Shown: positions 29,641-64,000, counted from the stretch's first letter. The stretch is 64,000 nucleotides of DNA from Squalus acanthias (GCA_030390025.1 CM059432.1:73348001-73412000); one strand, 5' to 3'. Notes: generated by a model not told the origin, from the sequence alone. Made by a program: numbers and translations.

Positions 29641-29833
29641 AGGCAAAGGTTTGCTCGAGGGTGATTAGTCACTATTGCTGTTGTATATATGTGGTTAATG
29701 GTTTTTGATAAATTTATGACTGGAATGTTGCAGATTTGATGCTGTGTCTCATTTCAGTTTTGGGGTGTGGTTTGGAATCACAAAGTGATGGAATGATGGC
29801 GACGTGCTCAGCAACCGGAACGAGGACTCGAAG

Positions 29834-31020
29834 TCACTGGAAACGAAGTCTGATGAGGCGGTCACGGACCGACCTTGCAGAATGCCGATTAAATGGCTGC
29901 CTCCTCCGTCGCTGCTGTTCATCCTCCTGTTCCTCCTGCTCGTCTTCTTCCTCCTCCTCCTGCTCCTCCTGAGGTGGTGCGGCTATGCCTGGTGACAATG
30001 GCTGCGCCCTCATAATGGCCAAGTTGTGCAGCATGCAGCAGACGATGACGAAAAGTGACACCCGCTCAGCCAAGTACTGGAGGGCTCCTCCCGAGTGGTC
30101 AAGGCAGCGGAACTGTTGCTTGAGCACTCCGATGGTCTGCTCAATGATGTTCCTGGTGGCAGCATTGCTCTCATTATATGAGTGCTGGGCACGAGTGTTG
30201 AGGTTGCGGCGGGGAGTCATGAGCCAGGTGGAGAGCCATGATCCAGGTGGAGAGTGGATAGCCCTTGTCTCCCAGCAGCTAGCCGCAAGCTTCATGTGGT
30301 GGCTGGAACAGGTCTGGCACACTGGTCTGGCGCAGGATGAAGGCATCATGGTGCTGCCAGGATAGCGGGCATTGACGGTCAGGATTCGTCGTGTGTGGTC
30401 GCACACCAACTGCACATTAAGTGAGTGGTAGCCTTCGCAGTTATGGAAAATCTCAGGATTGTTATGAGCTGCCCGCAAAGCGACGTGGGTGCAGTCAATG
30501 GCGCCCTGCACCATGGGGAAGCCCGATATCCTGGCAAAGCCACATGCTGCTCGTGCTGCTTCTCTCTGGTCATGGGGAAGGAAATGTAATCTCTTCTCCT
30601 TCTGTACAGAGCATCTGTGACCTGGCGGATGGACCAATGGACGGCAAACTGGGAGATGTTGGAGATGTCGCCTGTCGCACACTGGAATGATCCGCTGGCA
30701 TAGAAATTAAGGGTGACGGTGACCTTGACTGCCACTGAGAGAGCCCTGGTGGTCCTGATCTCAGGCTCGAGGTCTGGCTGCAGGAGGTGGTAGAGCTCTG
30801 TGACTACGTCCTCGCTGAAGCGGTGCCTTCTAATACACTGGTCCTCAGTGGAATTCATGTAGGAGAACTGCTGCCGGAATACCCTGGGTGGGTAAGGCCT
30901 CCTGTTGAGAGCCCTGTTGACCCTCCTACCTCTGGCCACATTTTGCACTCTTTCTCTGTGCCTCAGTTGCCTCCGACGTTGATGCTGGAGGGCGAGGTCC
31001 AGTGCCAGTACAGCCCCCAT
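29834..31020 (-). pseudogene. Harbinger DDE transposase (copy C), frameshifted
   Basis: MGAVLALD...AVKVTVTLNFYASGSFQ; GAIDCTH; IIEQTIGVLKQQFRCLD; VCCMLHNLAI. Spread over several frames. Confidence 0.92.
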
Positions 31021-33832: not shown

Positions 33833-34988
33833 ATGGGGGCTCTGCTGGCAGACCCCTCGCACTCGAGTATCTTCAGGAGAGGGAGTGGAGGCAGCGAAGA
33901 AGAGAAGATACGCGCAGAGGGAGGAGGAGGAAGGCCAGAAGGGCTCTCAACAGGATTCCTTGCCCACCTAGGGTCTTCCAAGAGCACTTTTCTTACCTCC
34001 ACTTAAGCGACGAGTAGTGTATTAGGAGGCTCTGCTTCACCAAGGAGGTGGTTACAGAACTGTCACCTCCTGCAACCAGACCTGCAACCTGAGAGCAGGG
34101 CGCCCATGGCTCTCCCAGTAGCCCTCAAGGTCACCGTGGCCCTCAATTTCTTCGCCAGCGGATCCTTTCAGTCTGCAACAGGAAACATAGCTAACCTCTC
34201 CCAGTTCACCGTCCATCACTGCATCTGGGAGGTCACACAGGCTCTCTACACTAGTAGAAGGGATTACGTTGTCTTCTCTCTGAACAGAGAGAAGCAGGAC
34301 CAGTGTGCATGTGGTTTTGCCAGGATAGTGCGCTTCCCCATGGTGCAGGGTGCCATCGACTGCACCCATGTGGCTTTGCGGGCGCCGCATACCAATCCTG
34401 AGATGTTCCGTAACCACAAAGGCTACCACTTACTTAATGTGCAGTTGGCGTGCGACCACGTGCAGTGCATCATGATGGTCAATGCCTGCTATCCTGGCAG
34501 CAGTCATGATGCCTTCATCCTGCATCAGTCCAGTCACCAGCCTTCTGTAGCTTCCAGCCACCATGTCAAACCCAAGGGTGGCTGATCGGAGACAAGGGCT
34601 ATCTGCTCTACACATGGCTGGCTCCCCTCCGCAACCCCACCCCTCGTACCCAGCACTCATATAATGATAGCCATGCTGCCACCAGGAACGTCAGCGAGCA
34701 CATCATCAGGCTGCTGAAGCAATGGTTCCGCTCCCTTGACCGCTCAGGAGGAGCCCTACAGTACTTGCACTTTGTGGTGTTCTGCTACATGCTTCACAAC
34801 TTGGCCATCCTGAGGGCACAGACTTTGCCACCAGGGATTGCGGGACTACCTCAGGAGGAGGAGGAGGGAGAGGAGGAGGAGAAGGAAGAGGAAGAGGACA
34901 AGGACAAGGAGGAAGGAGGAGGCAGGCAGCAGATCCCCGTTCCAGATAGGCTGTCCGTGAACGCCTCAACAGACTCCGATTCCAGTGA
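33833..34988 (+). pseudogene. Harbinger DDE transposase (copy D), with stops and frameshifts
   Basis: ALKVTVALNFFASGSFQ, GAIDCTH, YPGSSHDAFIL, GDKGY region, FCYMLHNLAIL. Confidence 0.9.
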
Positions 34989-35159
34989 ATGAAACCCCAG
35001 ATCCCTGCTGCTCACCACACCCCTATTATACCAACCCTCTGTCACGGAACATCACAGCGTTCTCCTGGGCAAAAAGCTGAAATGAGAGCCACCACAAAAC
35101 AAACATTCAAATAAAATTAATGAATTTATCACAATCCAATCAACATTACAATATGTACT

Positions 35160-36550
35160 AATCACCCTTGTGCATTCCCTTAGTGCCTGTTGTTCATGTG
35201 CCTTTTCCAACTCTATTGTTCCTATGCAGTGCTCCCCCAGTAGCTGCAGCACGGCTGGTGGAAGGCTGCTGACTTTCCGTGGAGGAGACTACAGATGGCC
35301 TTGCAGGATGACCTCAACTATCTGTGAACCTAGAAGGCCCGCTGTAGACTGCACCATCACCACATGGGCGGCAGCAGTCTGGGCTGGCTGACTGACAGGC
35401 AGCAGCAAGGGCAATGGCGGAGTGGCAGTGGTGGGAACAGGAATGTTGTCATCCTGAGAGAGGACAGCAGGTTCTTGTTCCACAGACCCACTGTCACTCC
35501 ACTGGGGCGGTGCCTCAGCATTCCTAGCAATCTGTTGGAGGACAGTTTGCTGGACAGCTGTAACATCCTGCAAGCCCCTTTCGACACTTGTAAACCCAGC
35601 GACGATGGCAGAAGTCTGAGTTTGCGTGGCAGCAAGCTGAGCCTGCAGGAGAGCAGTCTGCGCTTCCACTGTAGCACTGAGACATTGGGTCGCTCCTGCC
35701 TGTGCTGCAATGGAAGCCGCGACATCGCTCATCACACGCAGCATCATGGCTGGGTCGACAAGGTCTCTCATGGAGTTGTCCATCATTTCCAGCCTGGAAA
35801 TCATGGGCTCCAAGCTCTGCGCAAAGCCCCATCCAATGTTGGAGCCGTACTCCTCCATGCTCCTTGACATTGACAAGAGGCTCTCTGGCAGGCTTGCCAT
35901 TGCACCTAACATTTTAGTGTGCATGCTCATCACACTTCTTCTGAAGGCTGCCCCATCGATGTCATCATCTGAGTCATGTGCAGCAGAATGCGTGCGCGAA
36001 CTCGCCCTCAGTGGAGCGCCCCCGCCCCGAGTACCCTTTCCCCTGTCCTTGCTGCAGCCCACTCATGCCCAATGCCTCACCATGTGCAGATCCCGCCTTT
36101 ATACTACCCTCTACATTCTGCGCAGTGCCAGTTTCTGAGCTGGTGTCTGCGTGTGTCAGATGCAGTGATGGTGTGTCTTCTTCTTCTTCTCCTTCACCCT
36201 CCTCCACAGCATGAGGGATAGGCTGACCTGCTGGCAGTTCTTGGGTATCTGAAAGCAGAAAGACACAAGGGTCAGGTTGTGGTGAGGGGAGGGGGGGAAA
36301 AGCAAGATATCCATGCATACACCATCAGCAACTTGTAATTGACCTGCCATGTGAGATCATTAAACTTCTTTCGGCATTGGATCCATGTCCTTGGAACCAC
36401 ACTGGTGGCCGTGTCAGAGGTTGCTATCTCCTGCCAGAGCCTTCTACTAGTAGCCTTGGATGGTTTCCTGCCACCCTGTGGGAACAGTACAGCCCACCTT
36501 CTTTGAACTGCCACGACCAAGGTCTTGAGTGCAGCATCCGAGAACCTTCA

Positions 36551-36592
<42 letters not shown>

Positions 36593-36639
36593 CACTCGCT
36601 CTCTCTCTCTCTCTCTCTCTCTCTAGGTTGCTGAGCCAT
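35160..36639 (-). pseudogene. Myb/SANT-like Harbinger accessory gene (copy D), degraded
   Basis: MAQQPRERE..., LFPQGGRK...W...RTWIQCRKKFNDLT, and exon-3 ORF 35289-36062. Exon 2 absent. 3' boundary approximate. Confidence 0.85.
36550..36623. repeat. Compound microsatellite (TGCTCG)n-(CT)n
   Basis: About 7 hexamer units followed by ~13 CT units, inside Myb exon 1 of copy D. Confidence 0.9.
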
Positions 36640-39611: not shown

Positions 39612-40973
39612 CAAGATGCTGCATGGGAGGCTGCAGGGAGACTGCCAAGGACGGACTGGGGGAGGGTGGGGGAGAGGGGGGTCAGTGAAGGTGTGGGTAT
39701 CCTCCAAGCAGGGTCGACAGAAACTGGGTCACTTACCTGAATTTCACCAAGGGGACAATTTTTTACGAGTCTCCAGTTCCACTGCTGTCCTGTGTCACCT
39801 GCTGCAGTCGGACCTGGAGCCTATACATGCTTTGCCTGTGGCCATCGAAGTTACGACTGAATTTTTTCACCTCTGGGTCACCCCAGGCTGCAGTGGGTGA
39901 CATGGGTCGCATCAGTCAGTCAGCCGTCTTTCCTCTATTGAGCAGGTAACAGAAGCCATCTTCTGATGGGTGAGTACATACATCAAGTTCCTCATGAGCT
40001 AGCGATGTTCATGGATAGGAAGGGGTTTCATTCTCTGAATGTCCAGGATGTTGCAGATCATGTCACGGGAATAATGCAGGTATGTGTACGCTTTCTGTTA
40101 ATGTTCCATGATGAACGCCATACTGCAGCAGAGTATAGTGCCTCCACTTTTCCAACAGGACCAGTCATGACAAAGGCTACACTTTGACTACCTGGCTGAT
40201 GACGCCAATGCACTCTCCCACTAAACTTCGATATAACAGCAGCCATTGAGCAGGTCATTGGGATTCTGAAGTTGCGCTTCAGATCCTTGAGCTGGTCAGG
40301 GGAGCCAATACAGCCCACATAACAGACACACTGCCTTCCTTAGAGAAAGCAACATGTGCAGCTCCAATTGCACCAGTTCCACTCCAAAGAGACTGCGCAT
40401 CTGCTCTCCCAATGATTAGCATGACAGCAGACGGCAGGAAGTCTGCGACCCAATCAAAGCCCCTCTCCATTCAATCCCCCATTATGTCCACACTGCTGGA
40501 CAGCCTTTCAGGTTGGAAAAGAGAGTGGAGGCCAGAACCCCAGTGGCAGCAGTTTGACCTTTGATCAAAGTTGCCCTTGGTGGTGACAAGGACTTTTGCA
40601 TTATAGGCCTCGCTGCAGCTTCCATAGAGGACTTTATGCACTTCATGGTAGACTTCAAAGAAGTCGTGCCTTGCACCAGAACGCGGCAAGTGCAAGAGGT
40701 GGACTCCTCTATACTCTCAGCCGAGACATGGCAGCTCCTCGGCAGAATGTCCAATGCAATACTAATGGCTGGTGCACATCCAAGTTCCTTGTTTTGAAGG
40801 CTGGGGCATGGAGGTCTTCACCTCTGCGCTCTTCAACAGTGCTTGGACCCAACTGGCCTGGACCCAACTGGCCCTTCGACAAGCTGCGTCCTCTGCTGTC
40901 CTTTCTACCACTGCCATCTGCTGCTCACTTGTGATGTAAACTTCAGTCTGTGCAGACCCCTCTAACTCAGACT

Positions 40974-48663: not shown

Positions 48664-51619
48664 GTTGTTTGTATCTTTCCCATCTGCCAGGATCTGTGCT
48701 ATTTTTTGCATTTTTGTATGCTTTTTCTTTTAGTTTTATGCTGTCCCTTACCTCTTTAGTTGTCCACGGCTTTTTTTTTTGGCAAGTAGAGCTCTTGCCC
48801 CTCAGGGCTATAAACTGGTTCTGTATCACCTTAAATTCTTTTTTGAACATCTCCCACTGATCTTCTGTCATTTTACCCATTAACAGATTTACCCAGTTTA
48901 CTGTGGGCAGTCTCTGCCTCATTCTGCAGATTCTGCAGAAGGACCTGCCAATAGAAGAAAGGAACAACAATTATTGAATACTGGGCAGGTTAGGGAGGCT
49001 TAGACATGTGGAGTGGTGAGGCATCTTAAGTTTGGCCAGCTCCCTGAAAGAGCTGCACATCGAGGACAGATAAAAGAAAAGGGACAAAGGCAGAGACCTC
49101 CATCTCTGACACTCTGAGGGAAGCCTGTGCTCACAATCTCCAGGGCTTCCTGCTCCATGGAACTGAGGGCTTGAATGGAAGCTGTCCCTCGTTCTGTTTG
49201 CATCTGCTCCTGGGTATGATGTGCCAACTTGTCCTGCAGAAAGGAGGTGTGGTTCCATCAAAGGATTGGGAATTTGTGATAGGCCTGCTGATGTGTGCAT
49301 GATGAGTGTGACATGCAGCAAGCAGTGTGCAGGATGGGGAGGTGTCACGGAGCAGGAAAGTGACAGGAAGGTGAGATTTGCTGTCCAATACAAGTAGACT
49401 GCATAGATTTCCCTGTGCAACCAGGAGACAGTAATATGCTGCATGTGCTTGCTGTGAGGGCAACAGGAACTGCTCACGGGGAGCGATCTTCTGGTGTGTA
49501 CTACCAGCAGGTGCGCACATTTGGAAAATTGGCCTTTGTTGGGGAAGCTGTACATTGTACAAGATGAGATAATGAAGACAAAAGTGCATAAGATTTTAAT
49601 CTAAAATTTTATCTGGAAAAGGGTGTGAAAAGGTTCCCCAAGTGCAATAGTTAGTTGAAAATGCATTACTTCACTGTGTCTACTGATACTTATAAATGGT
49701 GCATTGCAATATTTAATAAGAACTGCAGCAAAAGAAGGTTAACAATATACCATTTTCCAACACTACAATTTGTTTCTCAAATAGGCTGGAATTCAACTAC
49801 TTGAGAAAATCGGCATTATTATCACTAATATGCCCTCTTAGTCTGTAATGGTTTCAGGAAGCTGCACCACAGGATCTCATTACTCTATGCCAAAGTGCTT
49901 TTAATTAACACTGGAGCTCATTTTAGATATAAATTAACTTCTGGTTAAGAAAAAATTACAATTAAAATACTTCCTTTAACCTATATTTTTCTGGCTGTTC
50001 TTCAGCATATCAACTGATGGATTAGAAACTGGTCTATGTAAAGGATCATGTTTAAAAGCTTGCACCTTTGCCATCTAACAATCCTTTTAAGTTTAAAAGA
50101 GAAAAATAATACACCAGTGGAGCATAGATCTGACTCTGAGATCACTTGATTATGTTTTATAATGGCTGATTTATAAAATTTGAATTTTAGCAGTAGATCA
50201 GTACTATAGAGAGTGTGGCCTCAATTTTCACGGGGTGGGGGGTGGGGGAGGGGGAGTGGTGGCAGGAAGGTTCCAGGGAGCCCGGTAGTAATTTGCATAG
50301 TAAAGCAGCCTATTTCAGGTGGACAGCTGACTCGCCCATTTAGAGGCCCACCTGAATGTGCCATGAATATGATGTTAATGGGCCGGCTAAAGTGCCCCCC
50401 GATTTCTAACTCCTGGTCACCCGTTTGTTATGGACAGCCGTGATTTAACTTTTTCTCCCAACATCTTTACAGCGTAAAAACTGTATAGTGGATGGTGAGC
50501 TATGCATCTGTATAGGATAGTAGGAGGGTTAGCAATGCATCTGTACAGGGTGGCAGATTATAGTAGAAGGTTAGCAGTGTCTGTACAAGAAAGTGTTGGT
50601 GCTGTAAATGATTAGTTGTGTGTCTGTGTAAGGCCTTTTACTAATCTTCTTACCTCTCTGGAGTCATATTAATGCACTAAAATATTGTCACAATCAATCG
50701 GAACAATGGTGCAATGAGAATTATCAGTCATAATCCCTCAAACCAGTTTCGTGGGTATCCCTTAACACTGGGACTACTTCCCAGATCCTAGTGCCAACAC
50801 TGACCTTCTACCATCCTTGTGGCATTCACCCACTGACTCATGGAAATGAGATGGAACAACAGCCAACAAGCCTGTTGCCATCAGGTGCTCCAGGGCACTT
50901 GAGCCAGGTTGGCAATTGTGTGTCACACATACTGACCAAAAGCAGGTTCAGAAGTTTCCTACAATCCAAAAGGAGGCAACAAGTGATATGTCAATCTCAA
51001 GATCATTCATTTTCATTCACAGCAATGTACAAAAAATCTAAAAATACTTTACAAAGGAAAAAAATTACCACAATTACATTGAACAAAGACATACAGATCT
51101 CAGAAGCACTCAGGGGAAACTTTATAAACCCTTGATTTAAAAGTAATGGTGGGGTTTGCCCACGATTGGTGGCATTCATTCACAGGCATGCAAAAAAAAT
51201 TATGTTCTTCAAAAATAGATTGAGCCAGGATAAATGTATAGGGATTTTCTGCATTAAAGTTGGGGTAGAAATTAGGTCGCGCCCCATTTGGGGCGCAAAT
51301 ATCGTCCGCGCGCAAATATTAGCGCCTGGCGCTAATTATCGGCACTGACAGGAAACTTCACTTTTACCGCCCCGGGAGGTGAGTGGAGCGCTAAATTAGG
51401 CGCTGCACACCTCTCTTAAGGCGCAAAGGCCTAGGAGTGAGGCGCTACCTCAGCGCACGAGCGCAGCGCAGCTGCTGCCAGTTAGCGAGGGAACACAGAC
51501 ACACTGGCGCCGGACACTTCTTAAAGCGGGGGGGGGCCACTTGCTCCCCAGCCACACCCTGCTCATTGCAGCCTTCAATCTCAGCCTGGAGAGACCTGTA
51601 ATCCATTTTGCTGCCAAGC

Positions 51620-53529
51620 ATGGAGAGGGTGAGAGAACGCGCTCATCGCTTCACCGAGCGGGCCTTGGATGCTCTGGTTGGCGCAGTGGAGCGCAGACGA
51701 TGCATGCTGTTCCCGGAGAGTGGCAGGAGGCCTTTGCCATGCGAGTTCAGAAGAGTGTGGAGGGAGGTGGCTCAGAGCGTCTCCTCCAGGAGCATGGTGC
51801 CCAGGACCCATGTTCAGTGCCGCAAAAAATTCAACGACCTCACTCGGGTCGTCAGGGTGAGTGGCTTTTTCTCAATACCTCTCCATCCCTCCATCTCAAC
51901 CTCACTATATGGCCAGAGGGTCTTAAAACCCCAATGCACAACACTCATGCAACACCTATGGCCCTTTCATCAAACACACACACACATTCCACACTTTGCA
52001 TACAGTAAGGGCTATTCACCTATGGGAGGCACATCAGGCAAGACCATGGCTGCATATTGTAAGGGCTATTCACCTATGGGAGGCACATCAGGCAAGACCA
52101 TGGCTGTATATTGACTCAGATGCTGTCCTTTTTCTTGCAGGCTAAGCTGGCTCATAATCGGAGACAGCAGCAACGGACGGGTGGAGGGCGGCTTCAGCTG
52201 CAACCCCTCAGCGATCTGGAGGAGCGCGTCCACAGGATTGTGGCAAGCCGGGTGATCGGTCCCGTCGCCACTGGGGACGCCGACCCCGTTGTGGACAGCA
52301 ATGGTAAGGTCATCACCTTTTTGTCCTCTGTCCTTCCACTTGTCCCTCACAATACCAGCCTTTGACACTTTCAATCCAACTTGCTAACTCGCTGCACTTA
52401 TTCCTCCCTTACTGCCACCCTGTCCTCACGCTAAAGCCACTCTTGTACCTCCCTGCTTTCAGATGGTGATTCACCAGCTGAGGAGATGGTCCCTGAAGCT
52501 GCCACTGGGAGTGATGCTGCAGCTGAGGAGGAAGAGGAAGCCGGAGCATCAGTGCCACCCTCTCCCGAGGAAGCCCATGGCCACACTGGGAACACGCCTT
52601 CCCCGGAGGGGAGCAGGGGGGAAGGGGCTGATGATGGTGAAGCTCCAGGACCCAGCGGGCTGCAGCAACGCCATTGGGGGGGGAGGGAAGAACGGGGGAG
52701 CAGGGGGGAAGGGGCTGATGATGGTGAAGCTCCAGGACCCAGCGGGCTGCAGCAACGCCATGGGGGGGGTAGGGAAGAACGGGGGCCTTCTCCCCAGAGG
52801 GAGAGTATGCCAGACACTCCTACTGCAATGGACGCAGAGGAGGAGCGGTTCATTGCAGAAATGAACACCCAGGCGGTGGGCATGCACACTGAGCTCATGG
52901 GTGCAGTGGGAAGGGTGCCCGAATGCATTGAGGCACTGGCAAGGAGTGTGGAGCACTTCGCTGTAGCACAGGCGGATGCCACACTAAAGCTTAGTGCTGC
53001 AATTCAGTCACTGGCTGCCAGGAACCCATCTGAGACTGCTCTCATGCAGACTCAGATTGAGGCCACGCGAGCACTGACTGCTGCCATCCTCGATGGTTCG
53101 TGCACATGTCCCCGGGGCTGTCACCGCGCCGCAGCAGGCCAGCAATCTGTTCTCCGGCAAATTGCTCCGGATGCTGAAGTGCTGCCCCGTGGGAGTGCCA
53201 GTGTGTCGGGCGAGCAGGGAGTTGCTGTCCTCTCTCACGATGACAGCATTCCTGCTGCCAACACTGTCACTTCTCCACTGCACTTGCCACCGCCTGTAGG
53301 ACAGACTGCTGCCGCCCATGCAGAGTTGGTGCAGTCTGCAGCCGGGCCCTCCAGGCCCAGAAGTGGTCGAGGCCGTCCTTCAGGGGCATCTGCAGTGTCA
53401 GGGTCTGACAAGCAGCAGCCTTCCACCAGCCTTGCTGCAGCCACTGAGGTCCCATTACGGAGGAGCAGTAGGGTTAGAAGGGGGGAAGTGCGCAAGGGAA
53501 GGAGATCACCCTCGAAGGGCAAAAAGTAG
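51620..53529 (+). CDS. Harbinger Myb/SANT-like (trihelix) DNA-binding accessory protein, 488 aa; exons 51620-51856, 52141-52303, 52463-53529
   Basis: ATG at 51620. Intron 1 GTGAGT...TTGCAG (phase 0), intron 2 GTAAGG...TTTCAG (phase 1). Spliced length 237+163+1067=1467 nt with no internal stop. N-terminal RAHRFTERALDALV...W.EVA...QCRKKFNDL; basic C-terminus RRSSRVRRG. Confidence 0.88.
52005..52113. repeat. 54-bp tandem duplication in Myb intron 1
   Basis: GTAAGGGCTATTCACCTATGGGAGGCACATCAGGCAAGACCATGGCTG.. at 52005 and 52059. Confidence 0.92.
52608..52785. repeat. 87-bp in-frame tandem duplication in Myb exon 3
   Basis: GSRGEGADDGEAPGPSGLQQRH(W/G)GGREER occurs twice (29 aa). Confidence 0.92.
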
Positions 53530-53823
53530 GAGGTGTGCCAAAATGCTGGTCATTTTTTTATTAAAGGCCGAGGTTCATGGCCCAACTTTTGTTTAGTGTT
53601 TTGGACATTATCTCCAGGTTGTGAGAACCAGTTATGTTATTGACTGTTTTTTTGTGTTTATTTCTATGAGTTTGTCATGAGGAATTGACACACACAGAGT
53701 TTGTACAATAAATAAGTTTCTGTATTCAAAATATACATGGCTGGTGGTTGGAATTATTGGTGCCTTGGCCGGCTTAGGGGTTGCGTGCTGGGTTGATTCG
53801 TGTTTGTAGCAATGGCAGGGGCC

Positions 53824-54984
53824 CTAGAAGCGGCTTGCTATTAGTCGTTGACGGACGGCCCTTGCAGTTTGACCATTGTGGGCCGCCCTCCTGCCTTGGT
53901 GCTGCTGCTGATCATCGTCCTCGGCCTGTTCCTCCTCTTCCTCCTCCTCCTCTTGTGGTGCTGCAAGGCCTGGTGGCATTGGCTGCGTCCTGAGGATTGC
54001 CATGTTGTGCAACATGCAGCACACCACTACGAATTTGGAAACTTGCTCAGGCGAGTACTGCAGGGCTCCTCCGGAATGGTCCAGACAGCGGAATCGTTGT
54101 TTGAGCACGCCGATTGTGCGCTCAATAATGTTCCTGGTTGCTTGTTGGCTTTCCTGGTACCGCAGCTCAGCAGGGGTGTTTGGCGCACGGAGCGGTGTCA
54201 TCAGCCAGGTGCTCAATGCGTACCCCTTGTCCCCCAGAAGCCAACCAACTGGCTGATGCGGTGCCTCGAAAATTTCTGCCACAGTACTCTGGCGCAGGAT
54301 GAAAGCATCGTGGCAGCTGCCCGGATAGTGGGCATTGACAGCGAGAATCACCTGTCTGTGGTCACAGACCAACTGCACATTCAAGGAATGGAACCCCTTT
54401 CTGTTCCGGAACTCCTCTGCATTCTCTCGCGGAGCACGCAAAGCCACATGCGTGCAGTCAATGGCGCCCTGCACCATGGGGAAGCCCGCTACCCTCGCAA
54501 AGCCCATAGCACGGTCATGCTGCTTGTCTGGGGTCATAGGGAAGGAGATGAAGTCTCGTCTCCTTGTGAAGAGGGCATTGGTGACCTGCCGGATGCAGCG
54601 ATGCACCGCAAACTGGGAGATATTGGCGAGGTCCCCAACAGCAGCTTGGAATGAGCCAGTGGCGTAGAAGTTCAAAGCCACTGTGACCTTCACTGCCACC
54701 GACAGAGACGTCCTGGACCTCAGCTGAGGCTGCAGATCTGGCTGCAGCAGGTGGCAGAGCTCAGTGACCACCTCCTTGCTGAATCGCAGCCTTCGCAAAC
54801 ACAGCTCCTCGGACATGTGGATGTAGGAGAGCTGTTCACGATATACCCTGGGAGGGTAAGCTCTCCTGTACATGCGCCTGATGGCCCTCCTCCGTCTGGC
54901 CATCATTGCCACTCTCTGTCTGCGTCTCACTATCCTCCGATTGAGCTGGAGCAGGACGACGCCCCCAATCATTGCAGCCCCCAT
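53824..54984 (-). CDS. Harbinger (HARBI1-like, DDE_Tnp_4) transposase, 386 aa, intact
   Basis: Single uninterrupted ORF. HTH region (LRFSKEVVTELC...VALNFYATGSFQ), catalytic motifs GAIDCTH, LLGDKGY and IIERTIGVLKQRFRCL, plus YPGSCHDAFIL and VCCMLHN. Confidence 0.95.
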   Translation of the reverse strand: MGAAMIGGVVLLQLNRRIVRRRQRVAMMARRRRAIRRMYRRAYPPRVYREQLSYIHMSEELCLRRLRFSKEVVTELCHLLQPDLQPQLRSRTSLSVAVKVTVALNFYATGSFQAAVGDLANISQFAVHRCIRQVTNALFTRRRDFISFPMTPDKQHDRAMGFARVAGFPMVQGAIDCTHVALRAPRENAEEFRNRKGFHSLNVQLVCDHRQVILAVNAHYPGSCHDAFILRQSTVAEIFEAPHQPVGWLLGDKGYALSTWLMTPLRAPNTPAELRYQESQQATRNIIERTIGVLKQRFRCLDHSGGALQYSPEQVSKFVVVCCMLHNMAILRTQPMPPGLAAPQEEEEEEEEQAEDDDQQQHQGRRAAHNGQTARAVRQRLIASRF

Positions 54985-55179
54985 ATTCTCTTTGCCAGAA
55001 AAGTAATGAGGTACAGCAACGAAAGTAGCAGCAAAGTTAGGATGAACTAGGCAAAACTACCTCACAAAGCGTTGAGTCACTGTAGAAGTCTCTCTCTCTC
55101 TCTCTCCGAATCTCTCTCTCTCTCTCAGAACGAGTGGTGCATAAATGTCGACCACAGAAAAAGACAGGAAGAGGCCCCC

Positions 55180-55324
55180 TTTAAATAGCGCCCCCCCCAG
55201 CCCCACACCGATTGATAACGTTCCAGTCTTCCGGTCGTTGGAAGAGCCAGGCGGTAAGGCAGGGGGCGCCACTCAATTTCCGCTCCGGGGCGCCCCAAGG
55301 GCGTTGCACCACGGAATGACGTCA
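55180..55324 (-). promoter_or_regulatory. Putative transposase promoter: CRE (TGACGTCA) + TATA-like GCGCTATTTAAA
   Basis: TGACGTCA at 55317-55324 and TTTAAATAGCGC at 55180-55191. The same pair lies upstream of the transposase in copies C and D. Confidence 0.5.
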
Positions 55325-55916
55325 CAATCTGCGCGCGCAGGTGGTCGCAGCGGTAAGTTTTAGCGCCGCCGCACAATCTCAAGTTAAGTTCTCGAGCGGC
55401 GCAAACAGCGCTGCGCCCGGGCGTTAGCGCCTTAACGCCCCATTAGCGCCCTCTTAAGGCGCTAACGGGAGGCGCAACCAACTGAATTTTTACCCCAAAG
55501 AATTGGGATTTGCATTTTCTGCTTAAATGGATTATATGCACATTTTGCATCTGGGTGAAAGCTTTCTCTGGTGCCATTGAAGAAATTAAGTATTGCATAT
55601 TATAAACTCCTTAAAATATACAGTTTGAAATTGTTGTTTTGGAACTTCTTACCACAATTGGTATCCAATCACTTACCCCAATCTAATATTGTACTTTACC
55701 CTTCGATGCACCTGCATGCATACATGTGCTGTATAATTGGTCCTTCATGCTTATTCTATGTGAAAATATATGTTTTGCTGAGTGAGATGTAAATGTAAAA
55801 TTAAATGGGTGTGGCAGAATTTCCCAGCCAGTAGTGTGGAGTTCTAGAGTCAGGCAACTCCAACCTGATTCTCAGGCAAGTACTGTAACTTCATATAACT
55901 GTTAGGGGGAAAAGCG

Positions 55917-57050
55917 GCAGTGAGGAGGGGCAGTGAAGCTCGGGAGAAGAGGCAGTGAGGAGGGGCAGTGAGGAGGGGGAGTGAGGGGAGGCCGTGAAGT
56001 GTGGGAGAAGAGCAGTGAGGGGAGGCAGTGAGGGGAGGCAGTGAGGAGGGGCAGTGAGGAGGGGGAGTGAAGGGAGGCCGTGCAGTGAGGAGAGGCAGTG
56101 AGGAAAGGCAGTGAGGAGGGGCAGTGAGGAGGGGCAGTGAGGGGAGGCAGTGAGGGGAGGCAGTGAGGAGGGGCAGTGAGGAGGGGCAGTGAGGAGGGGG
56201 AGTGAGGGGAGGCCGTGAAGTGTGGGAGAAGAGCAGTGAGGGGAGGCAGTGAGGAGGGGCAGTGAGGAGGGGGAGTGAGGGGAGGCCGTGCAGTGAGGAG
56301 AGGCAGTGAGGAAAGGCAGTGAGGAGGGGCAGTGAGGAGGGGCAGTGAGGGGAGGCAGTGAGGGGAGGCAGTGAGGAGGGGCAGTGAGGAGGGGCAGTGA
56401 GGAGGGGCAGTGAGGGGAGGCAGTGAGGAGGGGCAATGAGGTGAGGCAGTGAGGAGGGGCAGTGAGGTGAGGCAGTGAGGAGGGGCAGTGAGGAGGGGCA
56501 GTGAGGAGGGGCAGTGAGGGGAGGCAGTGAGGAGAGGCAGTGAGGAGGGGCAGTGAGGGGAGGCAGTGAGGAGAGGCAGTGAGGAGAGGCAGTGAGGAGA
56601 GGCAGTGAGGAGAGGCAGTGAGGGGAGGCAGTGAGGAGGGGCAGTGAGGGGAGGCAGTGAGTGGAGGCAGTGAGTGGAGGCAGTGAGGAGGGGCCGTGAG
56701 GAGGGGCCGTGAGGAGGGGCAGTGAGGGGGGGCAGTGAGGGGGGGCAGTGAGGAGGGGCAGTGAGTGGAGGCAGTGAGGAGGGGCAGTGAGGAGGGGCAG
56801 TGAGGGGAGGCAGTGAGGAGGGGTAGTGAGGAGGGGCAGTGAGGGGAGGCAGTGAGGAGGGGCAGTGAGGGGAGGCAGTGAGGGGAGGCAGTGAGGAGGG
56901 GCAGTGAGAGGGGGCAGTGAGGGGGGGCAGTGAGGGGGGCAGTGAGGGGAGGCAGTGAGGAGGGGCAGTGAGGGGAGGCAGTGAGGAGGGGCAGTGAGGA
57001 GGGGCAGTGAGGAGGGGCAGTGAGTGGAGGCAGTGAGGGGAGGCAGTGAG
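55917..57050. repeat. 13-bp G-rich minisatellite (GGCAGTGAGGAGG)n, left part
   Basis: Tandem units with variants (GGGGA, GAGA, GAAA, GCCG). Confidence 0.97.
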
Positions 57051-60000
57051 TGCAGGGGTCCCCTGTGGCCATACCCCTCTCAAACAGATATTCCACTTTG
57101 GATATTGTTGAGGGGGATGGCTTATTGGGGAAAGGCAGCAGCGATCAACTTCCTGGCACCCTGGGTGGTTCTGCTGCACAGGAGGGGATAGAAGAGTGGG
57201 AGAGATATAGTGATAGGGGATTCTATTGTAAGGGGCATAGATAGGCGTTTCAGCGGCTGCAAACGAGACTCCAGGATGGTGTGTTGCCTCCCTGGTGCAA
57301 GGGTCAAGGATGTCTCGGAGCGGCTGCAGGGCATTCTGGAGGGGAAGGGTGAACAGCCAGTTGTTGTGGTGCATATAGGTACCAACGATATAGGTAAAAA
57401 ACAGAATGAGGTCCTAAAAGCTGAATATAGGGAGTTAGGAGGTAAATTTAAAAATAGGACCTCAAAGGTAGTAATCTCAGGATTGCTACCAGTGCCACGT
57501 ACTAGTCAGAGTAGAAATAGGAGGATATTTTAGATGAATACGTGGCTAGAAGAATGGTGCAAGGGGGAGGGATTCAAATTCCTGGGACATTGGAACCGGT
57601 TCTGGGGGAGGTGGGACCAGTCCAAACTGGACGGTTTGCACCTGGGCAGGACTGGGACCGATGTCCCAGGGGGAGTGTTTGCTAGTGCTGTTGGGGAGGG
57701 TTTAAACTAAAATGGCAGGGGGTTGGAAACCTGTGCAGGGAGACAGAGGAAGGGGAAGCAAGGATAGAAACACAAGACAGGAAGGAGAAAAGCAAAAGTG
57801 GAAGGCAGAGAAATCTAGGTTGTAAATCAAACATGGCCACAGTAAACAATAATTCTAAATGGTCTAAGAATGTTCAAAAAACAAGCCTGAAGGCTCTGTG
57901 TCTTAATGCGAGGAGCATTCGTAATAAGGTGGATGAATTAGCTGTGCAAATAGATGTAAACGGATATGATATCAAAGGGATTATGGAGACATGGCTCCAG
58001 GGTGACCAAGGCTGGGAATTCAACATCATGGGGTATTCAATATTCAGGAAGGACAGGCAAAAAGGAAAAGGAGGTGGGGTAGCATTGCTGGTTAAAGAGG
58101 CGATTAACACAATAGTAAGGAAGGATATTAGCTCTGATGATGTGGAATCTGTATGGGTAGAGCTGAGAAATACCAAGGACAGAAAACGTTAGTGGGAGTT
58201 GTATACAGACCCCCAAACAGTAATGCTGATGTTGGGGATGGCATTAAATGGGAAATTAGAGACACGTGCAATAAGGGCACAGCAGTTATCATGGGTGACT
58301 TTAATCTACATATAGATTGGGCTAACCAAATTAGTAACAATACCATGGAGGAGGAATTCCTAGAGTGTATACAGGATGGTTTCCTGGACCAATATGTCAA
58401 GGAACCAACTAGAGATCAGGCCATCTTAGACTGGGTATTATGTAATGAGAAAGGATTAATTCGCAATCTTGTTGTGCGAAGCCCCTTGGGGAGGAGCGAT
58501 CATAATATGATAGAATTCTTCATTAAGATGGAGAGTGAAGTAGTTGACTCAGAGACTAGGGTCCTGAATTTAAATAAAGGAAACTACGATAGTATGAGGC
58601 GCGAGTTGGCTAGGATGGATTGGGGAATGTTACTTAAAGGGTTGATGGTGGATAGGCAATGGCAAACATTTAAGGATCGCATGGATGAACTACAGAATTT
58701 GTTCATCCCTGTTTGGCATAAAAATAAAACAAAAAAGGTGACTCAACCGTGGCTAACAAGGGAAATTAGGGATAGCATAAGATCCAAGGAGAGGACATAT
58801 AAATGGGCCAGAAAAAGCAGCAAACCTGAGGATTGGGAGCATTTTAGGATCCAGCAAAGGAGGACAAAGGGATTAATTAAGAGGGGGAAAATAGAGTATG
58901 AGAGTAAGCTTTCAGGGAACATAAAAACTGACTGTAAAAGCTTCTATAGATATGTGAAGAGAAAAAGATTGGTGAAGTCAAGCGTAGGTCCCTTGCAGTC
59001 AGAATCAGGGGAATTTATAATGGGGAACAAAGAAATGGCAGACCAATTAAATACATACTTTGGTTCTGTCTTCACAAAGGAGGACACAAATAACCTCCCA
59101 GAGATGTCGGGGAACATAGGGTCTAATGAGAGGGAGGAACTGAATGAAATCAGTATTTGTAGGGAGATGGTGTAAGGGAAATTGACGGGATTGAAGGCCG
59201 ATAAATCCCCACGGCCTGATAATCTACATCCTAGGGTACTTAAGGAAGTGGCCCTAGAAATAATAGATGCATTGCTGGTCATCTTCCAAAATTCTATAGA
59301 CTCTGAAACAGTTCCCATGGATTGGAGGGTAGCTAATGTAACTGCACTAGTTAAAAAAGGTGGTAGAGAGAAAATGAGGAATTATAGACCGGTAAGCCTG
59401 ACATCGGTAGTGGGGAAAATGCTAGAGTCCATTATAAAAGATGTAATAGCAGAGCACTTGGAAAACAGTGACAGGATCGGACAAAGTCAACATGGATTTA
59501 CAAAAGGTAAATCATGCTTGACTAATCTACTGGAATTTTTTGAGGATGTAACTGATAGAATAGATAAGGGAGAACCAGTGGATGTGGTGTATTTGGACTT
59601 TCAGAAGGCTTTCGATAAGGTCCCGCATAAGAGATTAGCGTACAAAGTTAAAGCACACGGGATTGGGGGTAAGGTACTGTCTTGGATAGAAAACTGGTTG
59701 GCAGACAGGAAGCAAAGAGTTGGAATAAACGGGTCTTTTTCCGAGTGGCAGGCAGTGACTAGTGGGGTACCGCAGGGATCGGTGCTAGGACCCCAGTTAT
59801 TCACAATATATATAAATGATCTAGACGAGGGAACTAGATGTAATATCTCCAAGTTTGCAGATGACACAAAGCTGGGTGGGCGTGTGTGCTGTGAGGAGGA
59901 TGCAGAGAAACTCCAGTACGATTTGGACAGGTTGGGTGATTGGGCAGATGCATGGCAGATGTAGTATAATGTGGATTAATGCGAGGTTATCCACTTTGGT

Positions 60001-60790: not shown

Positions 60791-61690
60791 GTGAGGAGGG
60801 GCAGTGAGGAGAGGCAGTGAGTGGAGGCAGTGAGTGGAGGCAGTGAGGAGGGGCAGTGAGGAGGGGCAGTGAGGAGGGGCAGTGAGGAAAGGCAGTGAGG
60901 AGGGACAGTGCGGAGAGGCAGTGAGGAGGGGCAGTGAGGAGAGGCAGTGAGGAGGGGCAGTGAGGAGGGGCAGTGAGGAGGGGCAGTGCGGAGAGGCAGT
61001 GAGGAATGGCAGTGAGGGGAGGCAGTGAGGAGGGGCAGTGAGGAAAGGCAGTGAGGAGGGGCCGTGAGGAGGGGCCGTGAGGAGGGGCCGTGAGGAGAGG
61101 CCGTGAGGAGGGGCAGTGAGGAGAGGCAGTGAGGAGAGGCAGTGAGGAGGGGCAGTGAGGAGGGGAGGTAGTGAGGAGAGGCAGTGAGGGGAGGCAGTGA
61201 GGGGAGGCAGTGAGGAGGGGCAGTGAGGGGAGGCAGTGAGGAGAGGCAGTGAGGAGGGGCAGTGAGGGAAGGCAGTGAGGGGAGGCAGTGAGGAGGGGCA
61301 GTGAGGAGAGGCAGTGAGGAATGGCAGTGAGGGGAGGCAGTGAGGAGGGGCAGTGAGGCGGGGCCGTGAGGAGGGGCCGTGAGGAGGGGCAGTGAGGAGG
61401 GGCAGTGAGGAGGGGCAGTGAGGAGGGGGAGTGAGGAGGGGCAGTGAGGAGAGGCAGTGAGGAGGGGCAGTGAGGGGAGGCAGTGAGGGGAGGCAGTGAG
61501 GAGGGGCCGTGAGGAGGGGCAGTGAGGAGGGGCAGTGAGGAGGGGCAGTGAGGGGAGGCAGTGAGGAGGGGCAGTGAGGGGAGGCAGTGAGGGGAGGCAG
61601 TGAGGGGTGGCAGTGAGGAGGGGCAGTGAGGAGGGGCAGTGAGGGAAGGCAGTGAGTGGAGGCAGTGAGGGAAGGCAGTGAGGGGAGGCC
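60791..61690. repeat. 13-bp G-rich minisatellite (GGCAGTGAGGAGG)n, right part
   Basis: Same unit and orientation as 55917-57050; it resumes immediately after the LINE tail. Confidence 0.97.
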
Positions 61691-64000
61691 ACTCTGTGAT
61701 GCAACGAAGAATCTGAAAAAAAATCTATTGCTGAAAAGTGATGTGAGAGGAGTGGTGGAGCCTGAGCAACTACTGCCAAGTGATTAATTTATTCTATAAC
61801 TCAGTAAAGTGTATAATTTATTATATAATTAAGTTTAGTGTTTTATTAATTAATTAAATGTGGGGGGATAAAATTAAAATTAACTAAATAGAGGATAATA
61901 AATTTAAAGGGATCTGAATTTAAAAAAGGAGCCCCTAATTTTAATTTAATTTTAATTAAATCATTAAATAAATAAAACAGGGTGCAGGTGGTGTGCCTCA
62001 ACTGCAGCATGTGGTCGTTTGTGGTGAGCATCGCGATCCCGGATGACCTCATCTGCAGTAAATGTCTGCAACTCGAGGAACCTCAGCTCAGAGTTGTTAG
62101 GCTGGAGTCTGAGGTTGAGACATTGCGGGGCATCAGGGAGAGGGAGAGTTACCTGGACACTTTGATCCAGGAGGCAGTCACACCCTTTAGATTAGGTAGT
62201 GGTACAGGTTTGGCTAATGGTCAGGGACAGGAGGGTGTGACTGCAACTCAGGCAGGTAAGGGGACCCCAGGTGGAGCAGCCTCAGCCTTTGCCCTTGTCC
62301 AACAGGTACGAGGTTCTTGCTGCTTGTTTCTGGAAAAGTGATGTCAGAGGAGTGGTGGAGCCCGAGCAACTACTGCCAAGTGATTAATTTATTTTATAAC
62401 TAAGTAAAGTGTATAATTTATTATATAATTAAGTTTAGTGTTTTATTAATGCGATGTCAGTGGAGTGGTGGAGCCCAAGGGCAATGTCTGCATGGTAGAT
62501 GAGCAAATAGACTACAGCACCGTGGTACAGGAGGCCATTCAAGTTGAGGGGGTGAAAAGGAATGTTGTAGTGGTCGGGGACAGTATAGTCAAGGGAATAG
62601 ATACTATTCTCTACAGCCGCGAGCGGGAGTTCCAAAAGTTGTGTTGCCTGCCCTGCTCTCCTCGCGGCTGGAGAAGAACTTGGAGTGGGAGGGAGATGAT
62701 CCAGTTTTTGTGGTCCTCGTAGGAACCAATGACATAGGTAGAACTAGGAATGAGGTTCTGCTGAGGGAGTTTGAGGAGCTAGTGTCAAAATTAATACGCA
62801 GAACCTCACAGGTAATAATCTCTGGAATGTTACCTGAGCCACACGCAAATTGGCATAGGGACAAAAGGAGAAAAATTCGGTTGGTTAGTGCCTCCCGTTA
62901 GCACCTCTGGTGCCGCTCGTGAAATTGACCAGATGTTTTGCAGTGGCGCTAAACACTACCAGCTCAATCTCCTGCGCCCGGAGATCATGACATCAGTTGA
63001 GTGTGCAATGCCCCGGTAGTGCCCCGGACCGGATATTGAGATGCGCCCCCTGCCTTAGCACCTGCTAGTAGGAACGACAGGTAGAGGGGAATGTTTTCAA
63101 GTCAGGAAGGGGCTGGGGGAGCGCTATTTAAAGGCGGACGCTTCCTGCCTTTACTTGTTGGCAAAATTTTTGGTACACACAGGTTGAGAGGGAGAGAGAC
63201 GTCTGGAGAGATTTAACGCTGTCCTAAGGAGTTTTGGCTCTTAGCATTGAGGTTCCTAAGCGCCGAGCTCTCTCCCTGGGCCTATCCATTAGTGCTTCCA
63301 ACACAATTGCTTTAGAGGTCTCTCCAGGCCGAGATTCAAGGCTGCAGGTAGCAGGGTGTGGCTGGCCAGCAAGATGGCCCCTCCCCTTTAAGAACTGGAC
63401 AGTGCCAGTCTGTCTGGCTTCCATGGTAACTGACGTCGCCTGAGCTTCGGTAGCATTCTGAGGTAGCGCCTCGCTCCTTGACGTTTGCGCCTTAAGAGAG
63501 GGGTGTAGCGCCTGATTTACCGCTCAAATCACCTCCAGGGGCGATAGAGGCGAATTTTGCAGTTGGAGGCGATAATTAGCACCGGGCGCTAAACTTTGTG
63601 CCTGGCCGATATTAGAGCCCCAAAATGGGTGATACCCAATTTTTCCCCCAAACAAATTAGAAGGTTAAATGCATGGCTAAAAGAGTGGAGTGGGAGGCAG
63701 GGGTTTCGATTCATGGGGCATTGACACCAGTACTGGGAAAAGAGGGAGCTGTTCTGTTGAGTCAGGCTCCACTTAAACCTGGCTGGGACCAGTGTCCTGG
63801 CAAATCAAATAACAAAGGCGGTAGATAAAGCTGTAAACTAAGGAAGGGGTGTGGGAGGATTCAGGAAAGGTTAAATTCAAAAGCAGTAAGAGAAATGTCA
63901 AGGCTGTAGAGCAGAGTAAAGATTTGGGTAAAAATAAGCAGAGTTGGTCAGAAGGGACAGAGAGCATAACTCAGGTAATAGGGCATGAGACACTAAGGTG
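61691..64000 (+). mobile_element. 5' portion of a CR1 LINE (5' UTR + degraded ORF1), running off the window
   Basis: VCLNCSMW...CSKCLQLEE; VVVVGDSIVKG; LVGTNDIG. Homologous to ORF1 at 41470-42424. Confidence 0.85.
62866..63649. mobile_element. Harbinger deletion derivative (MITE), 784 bp, related to copies C/F
   Basis: TIRs AGGAGAAAAATT / AATTTTTCCCCC. Exact TSD AAA. The right end aligns (reverse) to 51262-51450. Retains the Myb start MDRPRERARR (-) and GCGCTATTTAAA. Confidence 0.9.

Follow-up and report, generated by a model that had tools for sequence, protein, structure and literature searches.

An intact shark Harbinger transposon whose family may have spread as one fast-changing, selected lineage

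The zebrafish Harbinger3_DR system requires a transposase together with a Myb-like protein, and the Myb-like protein binds subterminal motifs as well as the transposase (PMC9710019, PMC2836001). An extended palindromic target of 15 bp is a feature of vertebrate Harbingers (PMC2836001). In sea kraits, Harbinger-Snek has 269 intact copies in L. colubrina with reads over both genes and is possibly still moving (PMC8437027). Harbingers are described as absent from the elephant shark, and other cartilaginous fish have been called for (PMC9179366). More generally, DNA transposons are held to evolve neutrally within vertebrate genomes with no route to cis-preference (PMC7070016), a view on which PMC13558583 builds, and a ladder-like tree is regarded as a LINE-1 trait (PMC6562965). 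The present analysis concerns a full-length autonomous PIF/Harbinger transposon of 4,235 bp at 51262..55496 (plus strand) of a 64,000-nucleotide stretch of Squalus acanthias DNA (GCA_030390025.1 CM059432.1:73348001-73412000), hereafter the window. The element carries a DDE transposase gene and a convergent Myb-like gene of three exons, and it is accompanied by a miniature inverted-repeat transposable element (MITE). The best explanation, held with slightly more confidence than doubt, is that the family of this intact Harbinger spread as one fast-changing, selected lineage, likely because only the newest, unsilenced copies make proteins and move.

Trees of the family were built with FastTree from 90 copies (89 and the window copy) sampled by an exact 30-mer, and changes were placed by parsimony. 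The 87-bp and 54-bp repeat regions were masked, and ten of the 100 long copies, having truncations or large indels, were kept outside the tree and counted as not intact. Divergence from the window copy ranges over 0.4-8.9%. The newest copy is reached through 59 internal nodes, none of which lacks a change, compared with a maximum of 20 under random branching (5,000 trees). The left and right halves of the element give the same copy order. Changes between the rungs are nested, scattered and single-site without blocks, and the middle rungs carry third alleles without long tracts. Tip length falls with rung (Spearman -0.81), and the slope of -0.064 +/- 0.006 over 81 copies means 345 trunk changes versus ~22 tip changes. 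The trunk changed ~16x faster than the inserted copies, a figure that is conservative because unsampled branches lengthen the tips. The CpG>TpG share is 7.6% on the trunk and 29% on the tips, and the trunk is also richer in transversions.

These patterns make it very unlikely that the family is an ordinary Harbinger burst, now extinct, whose ladder and selection are by-products of subfamily conversion, sampling or tree-building. Conversion does occur, as seen in the MITE ends, in the mosaic copy L084 and in a block of old alleles at 52643-52868 of the window copy, and both the exact 30-mer required in sampling and parsimony on a FastTree tree, which can misplace changes, would favour such an origin. 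However, nested and scattered changes, third alleles in mid-ladder, the lack of long tracts, the agreement of the two halves and the dependence of tip length on rung are not what it predicts, and the selection described below holds under three ways of counting as well as between subfamily majorities. Conversion from a diverged donor was also considered as the origin of the trunk changes and rejected, since excess clustering is limited to 3 bp.

Comparisons of non-synonymous and synonymous changes (N/S) showed that the trunk is depleted of amino-acid changes. The ratio in the transposase is 78/78 on the trunk versus 289/128 on the tips (P 2.5e-5), that in Myb exon 1 is 14/20 versus 69/18 (P 1.4e-4), and that in Myb exon 2, in the predicted frame, is 4/12 versus 43/32 (P 0.027). 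Stops number 0 on the trunk and 25 on the tips. The signal is stronger when only path changes are taken for the trunk and only private changes for the tips (P 4e-8 and 9e-8), and it persists without CpG changes. The majorities of old and young subfamilies differ with a ratio of non-synonymous to synonymous differences (pN/pS) of 0.29. Both genes thus appear to have been under purifying selection along the trunk, in the transposase and in Myb exons 1 and 2, which is consistent with a need for both proteins.

A host-maintained source locus, that is, a part-domesticated master copy that keeps the genes working and seeds the other copies, might also give selection of this kind. Master-gene models do give ladders, Harbinger genes are often domesticated (PMC9710019), and several shark models named 'putative nuclease HARBI1' are without the catalytic glutamate. 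However, a fixed host locus would be expected to change at or below the host clock rather than 16x faster, the trunk keeps changing its terminal inverted repeats (TIRs) and subterminal regions, and the window copy, with its ordinary single-copy flanks, shows the decay of a tip. Such a locus is hardly credible as the source of the family.

The 893-bp MITE has the same TIRs as the autonomous element and is presumably mobilised by the proteins of the latter. Among 60 consecutive MITEs 55 are full length, and 41 of these 55 have an exact target-site duplication (TSD). The other five are partial, and four flank-sharing duplicates were removed before the slope analysis. The MITEs form a ladder of their own, up to 18% deep (Spearman -0.81, 63 copies), and such a pattern in an element without genes indicates that the ladder arises inside the source genome. 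The outer ~150 bp of its 5' end and the outer ~320 bp of its 3' end, which track the 5' and 3' subterminal regions of the autonomous element (51274..51619, plus strand, and 54985..55484, minus strand), were replaced blockwise from the termini inward by alleles of contemporary autonomous rungs. After the block replacement, the MITE ends follow the single-site changes of the autonomous lineage in their order. Where a 5' site changed in MITE and autonomous element alike (20 sites), the two arrived at a common allele in 19 cases; the inner 5' part keeps its MITE-specific sequence. Of the 65 changes at the 3' end of the MITE, 55 lead to the allele of the young autonomous copies. The TIR bases, too, changed in an order shared by the two lineages. 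The youngest sampled MITEs match the middle-young rungs rather than the rung of the window copy, and none of the sampled MITEs carries alleles of the latest autonomous rungs.

This chase of the autonomous ends is best covered by a lock-and-key drift, in which the proteins of each rung prefer their own ends or partner, so that a new variant has its machinery to itself, older copies and the MITE fall behind, and selection favours MITEs that take over the new ends. The replacement from the termini inward, the common order of TIR changes and the lack of latest-rung alleles in the sampled MITEs would all be expected, as would two features of the trunk. Per base, trunk changes are most numerous in the subterminal regions, and amino acids 249-355 of the Myb-like protein (52807..53127, plus strand) have an amino-acid excess on the trunk, with 45 N and 5 S compared with 79/39 on the tips. 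The latter is a candidate for positive selection (P 0.002; window-scan permutation 5 of 300), in a region that was chosen post hoc, and the excess may partly reflect low synonymous change because silent changes are unusually few in exon 3. A wrong frame or an overlapping open reading frame (ORF) behind the exon 3 excess is unsupported, as stops arise on the trunk in four of the five other frames; the remaining one, antisense and in register, is free of them, but its N/S is no better. The same few silent changes weaken the excess as evidence for lock-and-key drift, and the subterminal excess is not specific to the trunk, since the tip changes are also highest there. Furthermore, the DNA-binding domain of the Myb-like protein is under purifying selection (18/32), the end conversion could be passive repair off the most open template, and the drift alone leaves the missing CpG decay in the coding parts of the trunk unexplained. 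As the principal cause it is possible, though rather doubtful, and it can be combined with the spread through fresh, unsilenced copies.

The latter spread would proceed as follows. In line with the known biology of the family, the Myb-like protein would bind the subterminal motifs and bring in the transposase, which would cut at the TIRs, and insertion into a palindromic target of 15-19 bp would duplicate 3 bp. Inserted copies decay neutrally with many CpG changes, and the source line loses no reading frame and is depleted of amino-acid changes and CpG decay while running ~16x faster. Methylation would silence nearly all copies. A fresh copy, such as one made anew when the gap left by excision is repaired, would be a protein source and an open substrate at once, so that the quality of its proteins would be tied to its own spread. 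Repair errors would be added at each round; gap repair is linked with errors and with methylation loss. The observed conversion of the MITE lineage to the current autonomous ends would be its way of surviving. A relay of fresh copies could cover the ladder, the selection and the low CpG decay, and the speed only in part. The logic of one copy expressed at a time has been offered for long terminal repeat elements by Zhang et al. (PMC7070016).

Several observations weigh against this explanation. The trees hold 90 of the ~6,400 copies, and these come from the window and from the initial 57 Mb of a single contig. The trunk shows no greater enrichment of tightly clustered changes than the tips do, and Myb exon 3 as a whole has no purifying signal (78/17 versus 234/83, P 0.10). 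In the inner part of the MITE the trunk is only ~3x faster than the tips (slope -0.30), and an error rate per jump is therefore insufficient alone for the 16x of the autonomous lineage. The existence of ~23,000 MITEs and of Myb-frameshifted copies means that the proteins also act in trans. The RNA contigs described below carry middle-rung and not newest-rung alleles, and their source organisms may be other species. A bolder form of the explanation is that replication has been 'private', one master lineage having persisted vertically in sharks, perhaps over tens of millions of years, under purifying selection at >10x the host speed, with the family still active and its newest rungs having outrun the MITE. 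It is offered tentatively, as a reading more open to doubt than the relay of fresh copies. If true, it would be a counter-example both to the rule of neutral decay and to the need for horizontal transfer, and the preserved rungs would allow old and new pairs of proteins and ends to be compared.

The relatives of the transposase bear on the origin of the lineage. The best 64 of its 373 protein matches are all shark or ray models named 'putative nuclease HARBI1', which are 45-66% identical; none exceeds 66%, and the first non-elasmobranch match is at 45%. Because of these 64 matches the host would be placed among the elasmobranchs, probably as a shark, which agrees with the chondrichthyan origin proposed in a preliminary description of the window made from the sequence alone. 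Among the models so named, P0004, P0005, P0009 and P0040 are without the catalytic glutamate and would seem to be additional Harbinger transposases that were domesticated or have decayed. A serial horizontal re-invasion, in which the trunk evolved in a fast-clock organism with little CpG methylation (a parasite, a virus or prey) and entered the shark repeatedly, would account together for the speed, the purifying selection and the low CpG decay, the selection stemming from a transfer filter. Horizontal transfer does impose purifying selection (PMC7070016) and is reported for marine Harbingers (PMC8437027, PMC9179366), and 35-66% of the words of the element occur in runs assigned to six organism codes. 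However, dozens of entries would be required (59 rungs in a sample of 90), and no reservoir is visible among the 373 protein matches, the best of which are elasmobranch at no more than 66% identity. Older related families lie in the same window, all 59 alleles from the contig runs are already present in copies of the source genome, and the inner part of the MITE is also a ladder. Repeated entry is therefore improbable.

Judged by its sequences, the family is very young. On the newest rung, copies L154, L163 and L176 lie on three contigs with different flanks and are 0-1 substitutions apart in 3,911 sites. With the mutation rate of another shark, 7e-10 per site per generation with a wide interval (PMC10587355), the 95% upper age bound of a zero-difference pair is ~5e5 generations. 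The window copy has 6-8 private changes in 3,911 sites and is ~40 changes behind the newest rung. At the same rate its age is >1e6 generations, unless its changes came with the insertion or from the assembly, and since the shark clock is slow, its lag can mean millions of years. The sequences leave the chance that the family is currently active evenly balanced. The preliminary description had proposed a natively autonomous, recently mobile element. Its complete two-gene structure and its many near-identical copies are supported, and its status as a candidate active element is plausible.

The ends of the element are fixed at 51262 and 55496 by flanks that are different in 30 of 30 top genomic copies. 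All 35 scored matches are full length at 99%, each with flanks of its own, and thus provide the near-identical genomic copies on which the earlier proposal depended. Terminal sequence comparison gave a left TIR of 12 bp (51262..51273, plus strand) and a right TIR of 12 bp with one mismatch to it (55485..55496, minus strand), GGGGTAGAAATT / GGGGTAAAAATT, which are shorter than the usual 25-50 bp of Harbinger TIRs (PMC9179366). The window copy is without a TSD, having GTT at the left and AAA at the right; the AAA at 55497..55499 would be the sole remaining copy of the expected 3-bp TSD, the left copy being missing. The site scores 6.4 bits on the family target matrix only if the left TSD copy is assumed lost, a score attained at 0.15% of window positions. 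Both flanks are single-copy in the source genome, which contains no empty site for this insertion, and four of the presumed RNA runs gave no coverage of the flanks.

The observed/expected CpG ratio is 0.56 in the element, compared with 0.22 and 0.37 in the flanks, and reaches 0.79 and 1.11 in the subterminal regions. The repeated TTAGCGC/GCGCTAA motifs of the CpG-rich 5' subterminal region are likely Myb binding sites and the region itself the likely Myb promoter; the CpG-rich 3' subterminal region likely holds the transposase promoter and further Myb binding sites. Between the convergent genes is a gap (53530..53823) with poly(A) signals at 53560 and 53707 on the plus strand and at 53557 and 53657 on the minus strand. 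The 12-bp TIRs, apart from their one mismatch, and the abundance of CpGs had been described correctly before, as had the two stop-free genes considered next.

The transposase of 386 amino acids is encoded by a stop-free ORF on the minus strand (53824..54984, read from 54984 to 53824) with the motifs GAIDCTH, GDKGY and IERTIG. It matches Pfam DDE_Tnp_4 (E 4.6e-38), its catalytic triad D176, D252 and E288 is intact when aligned with relatives, and the protein is identical to the majority of its own subfamily. The structure was predicted confidently, with a predicted local distance difference test score (pLDDT) of 83; a prediction from the single sequence gave a pLDDT of 38 and was set aside. The matches of the model to DDE transposase/integrase folds are weak (E > 0.001), with none at E <= 0.001, and the sequence search found no relative of solved structure.

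The Myb-like gene on the plus strand is predicted to join three exons at two GT-AG introns into a stop-free protein of 488 amino acids. Exon 1 (51620..51856) encodes the Myb/SANT domain, which matches Pfam Myb_DNA-bind_5 (E 4.2e-8) and also Myb_DNA-bind_4. It is followed by the predicted intron 1 (51857..52140, 284 bp), exon 2 (52141..52303), supported by selection in the predicted frame, intron 2 (52304..52462, 159 bp) and exon 3 (52463..53529). Intron 1 holds a 54-bp tandem repeat (window 52005-52112) with 1-8 units across the copies. Exon 3 contains an in-frame 87-bp duplication (52608-52785), which arose just before the rung of the window copy and is present in 2-3 units on later rungs. 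It also has two G runs at which frameshifts concentrate in other family copies. All four splice sites are kept in 85 of 89 copies. For the C-terminal part of the protein, an Atlas search gave only unnamed matches scoring <0.9, and among 146 candidates for longer proteins with Myb exon 1 there was one match.

The splice junctions were compared with seven contig runs that are only presumed to be RNA. Intron 2 (junction 52303/52463) is skipped exactly, with GT..AG ends, in five of the seven runs from two studies, the short side of the joint being 19-25 letters. Intronless genomic copies behind this joint were considered and rejected, as either junction is found in 0 of 252 fetched loci; the joint is therefore most likely RNA splicing in family members. 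The junction of intron 1 (51856/52141) is spliced in 0 of the seven runs, whose contigs read through it unspliced. Of the two junctions given in the preliminary description, only the second thus has a counterpart in these runs. The predicted intron 1 rests on homology and selection: the sawshark protein model P0006 aligns without a gap over its junction (46% over 112 amino acids), and an older family copy in the window (27600-31000) has a GT donor at the same codon. The 59 alleles listed for the contig runs fit the middle rungs of the family and not the subfamily of the window copy, and these contigs therefore speak for expression of the family rather than of the window copy. Transcription at the level of the family, with intron 2 spliced, is supported.

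In the 3.71-Gb source genome, exact 30-mers have 6,445 matches for the transposase, 5,914 for Myb exon 3 and 8,592 for the 5' end, and a 30-mer inside the MITE has 23,320, in line with the earlier suggestion that the element has a MITE family of its own; reversed 30-mer controls have 0 matches in the genome. The ~6,400 long copies and ~23,000 MITE copies make up about 0.7% and 0.6% of the genome. Among the 89 normal-length copies, the transposase is open in 59, the Myb gene with its splice sites in 49 and both genes in 31, which gives a genome-wide estimate of ~2,000 copies with both genes open (1,400-2,600); the window copy itself was outside this ORF check. Many of the Myb breaks fall in the two G runs, where slippage or an assembly error may have produced them. 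A further 29 copies share a +1 in the G run because the query carried it and were kept out of the intact counts.

Both ends are present in 96 of the first 100 transposase matches on one contig. An exact 3-bp TSD flanks 76 of these 96 copies, with a chance match of 7%, and 24 of the 30 top genomic copies. In 11 more of the 96 the TSD has one mismatch, which is more than the divergence of the copies predicts and may result from error-prone filling at insertion. Nine of the 96 have at least two TSD mismatches, and the neighbouring copies L083/L084, L086/L087 and L105/L106 have one flank in common and the other different; local duplications or rearrangements ending at the element termini probably explain these pairs and the poor TSDs. 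The target of the family is the palindrome T-W-A-R-A-S-W-C-[WWW]-G-W-S-T-Y-T-W-A (115 sites, 8.6 bits), with A at -5 and T at +5 in 90% of the sites. A given position of a host repeat can hold copies of different rungs, and repeated independent insertion at such positions is seen, for example, for L007, L008, L068, L088 and L137/L141/L155. Thirteen of the 115 sites are (ACTCTATG)n-like tails.

At least six Harbinger remnants lie within the window. The older copy at 27600-31000 has the same orientation, ~72% DNA identity and a frameshifted transposase; a third copy at 33900-36600 is inverted, 68-72% identical and frameshifted; and decayed Myb-like or transposase fragments are found at 7879-8477, 26385-27239, 39763-40313 and 49126-49296. 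A short non-autonomous element at 62871-63649 with related TIRs and an apparent TTT duplication is 76% like the oldest and 69% like the youngest MITE rungs, as an older relative of the MITE family. Long G-rich minisatellite arrays with a 13-bp period stand beside LINE-like repeats at 55866-57400 and 60800-62600.

The element combines a DDE transposase, a separate Myb/SANT-like gene, TIRs, a 3-bp TSD, a palindromic target and a MITE partner, the features of PIF/Harbinger. A domesticated gene of the HARBI1/NAIF1 type was rejected given the 6,445 and 5,914 coding 30-mer matches, the TIRs and the TSDs, and ISL2EU was rejected because the second gene is Myb-like and does not encode the YqaJ exonuclease that defines that group (PMC9179366). 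The element belongs to the same protein families as HARBI1, NAIF1 and the shark and ray RefSeq models named 'putative nuclease HARBI1', and its closest database entries bear that name. Unlike HARBI1 and NAIF1, it has TIRs, TSDs, thousands of copies and the full DDE triad, and some of the shark models so named may, as this suggests, be transposon genes.

The shark family shares with the reconstructed Harbinger3_DR the DDE transposase and Myb-like genes, short TIRs, a 3-bp TSD and a non-autonomous partner. The Harbinger3_DR target AAACAC-CWG-GTCTTT (AAACACCWGGTCTTT, PMC3016246) is close to ARASWC-WWW-GWSTYT of the shark family, in which the central triplet is A/T-rich, unlike that of Harbinger3_DR. 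About 1/3 of the natural shark copies keep both frames open, and therefore no reconstruction is needed here, in contrast to Harbinger3_DR; the activity of the shark copies is putative. A natural two-protein system with a 15-19-bp target preference is a candidate tool.

Intact, expressed vertebrate Harbingers are already known from the sea krait, the newt and the coelacanth, and the novelty that had been claimed for a natively intact vertebrate copy is forestalled by the sea krait copies (PMC8437027). The new part is the mode of evolution of the family. Like the shark family, Harbinger-Snek has hundreds of intact two-gene copies and many short non-autonomous ones, and it is described as deriving from one horizontal transfer with a sharp burst and many solo-ORF deletions (PMC8437027). 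The shark family differs in having both ends in 96 of 100 long copies, elasmobranch relatives and a long ladder with selection on the trunk. High-copy expressed Harbingers with recent or ongoing accumulation are also described in slow-evolving or large genomes, those of the coelacanth (PMC5381603, PMC5741667, PMC9179366) and of Pleurodeles waltl (PMC5741667); the latter is described as having had two bursts (PMC5741667), unlike the single shark lineage. The available portions of the sea krait and newt descriptions contain no analysis of a single lineage or of selection within the genome (PMC8437027, PMC5741667). The literature search found neither a described Harbinger family from sharks, nor a DNA transposon whose ladder shows selection on the trunk, nor a MITE that tracks autonomous ends; this absence is weak, as the search had most subscription journals, Repbase and Dfam outside its scope. 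Successive subfamilies are known in other DNA transposons.

The shark family fills a gap noted for cartilaginous fish (PMC9179366). Because the host clock is slow, its intermediate rungs are still readable and often intact, and the persistence of a DNA transposon without horizontal transfer becomes testable with natural sequences. The closest parallel to its mode of evolution is mammalian LINE-1, which likewise has one proliferating lineage, purifying selection within the genome and a non-autonomous parasite (PMC6562965, PMC7070016). However, LINE-1 is a retrotransposon with ribosomal cis-preference, a route regarded as unavailable to DNA transposons such as the shark element (PMC7070016). The shark family bears a signature opposite to the neutral decay of DNA transposons within genomes.

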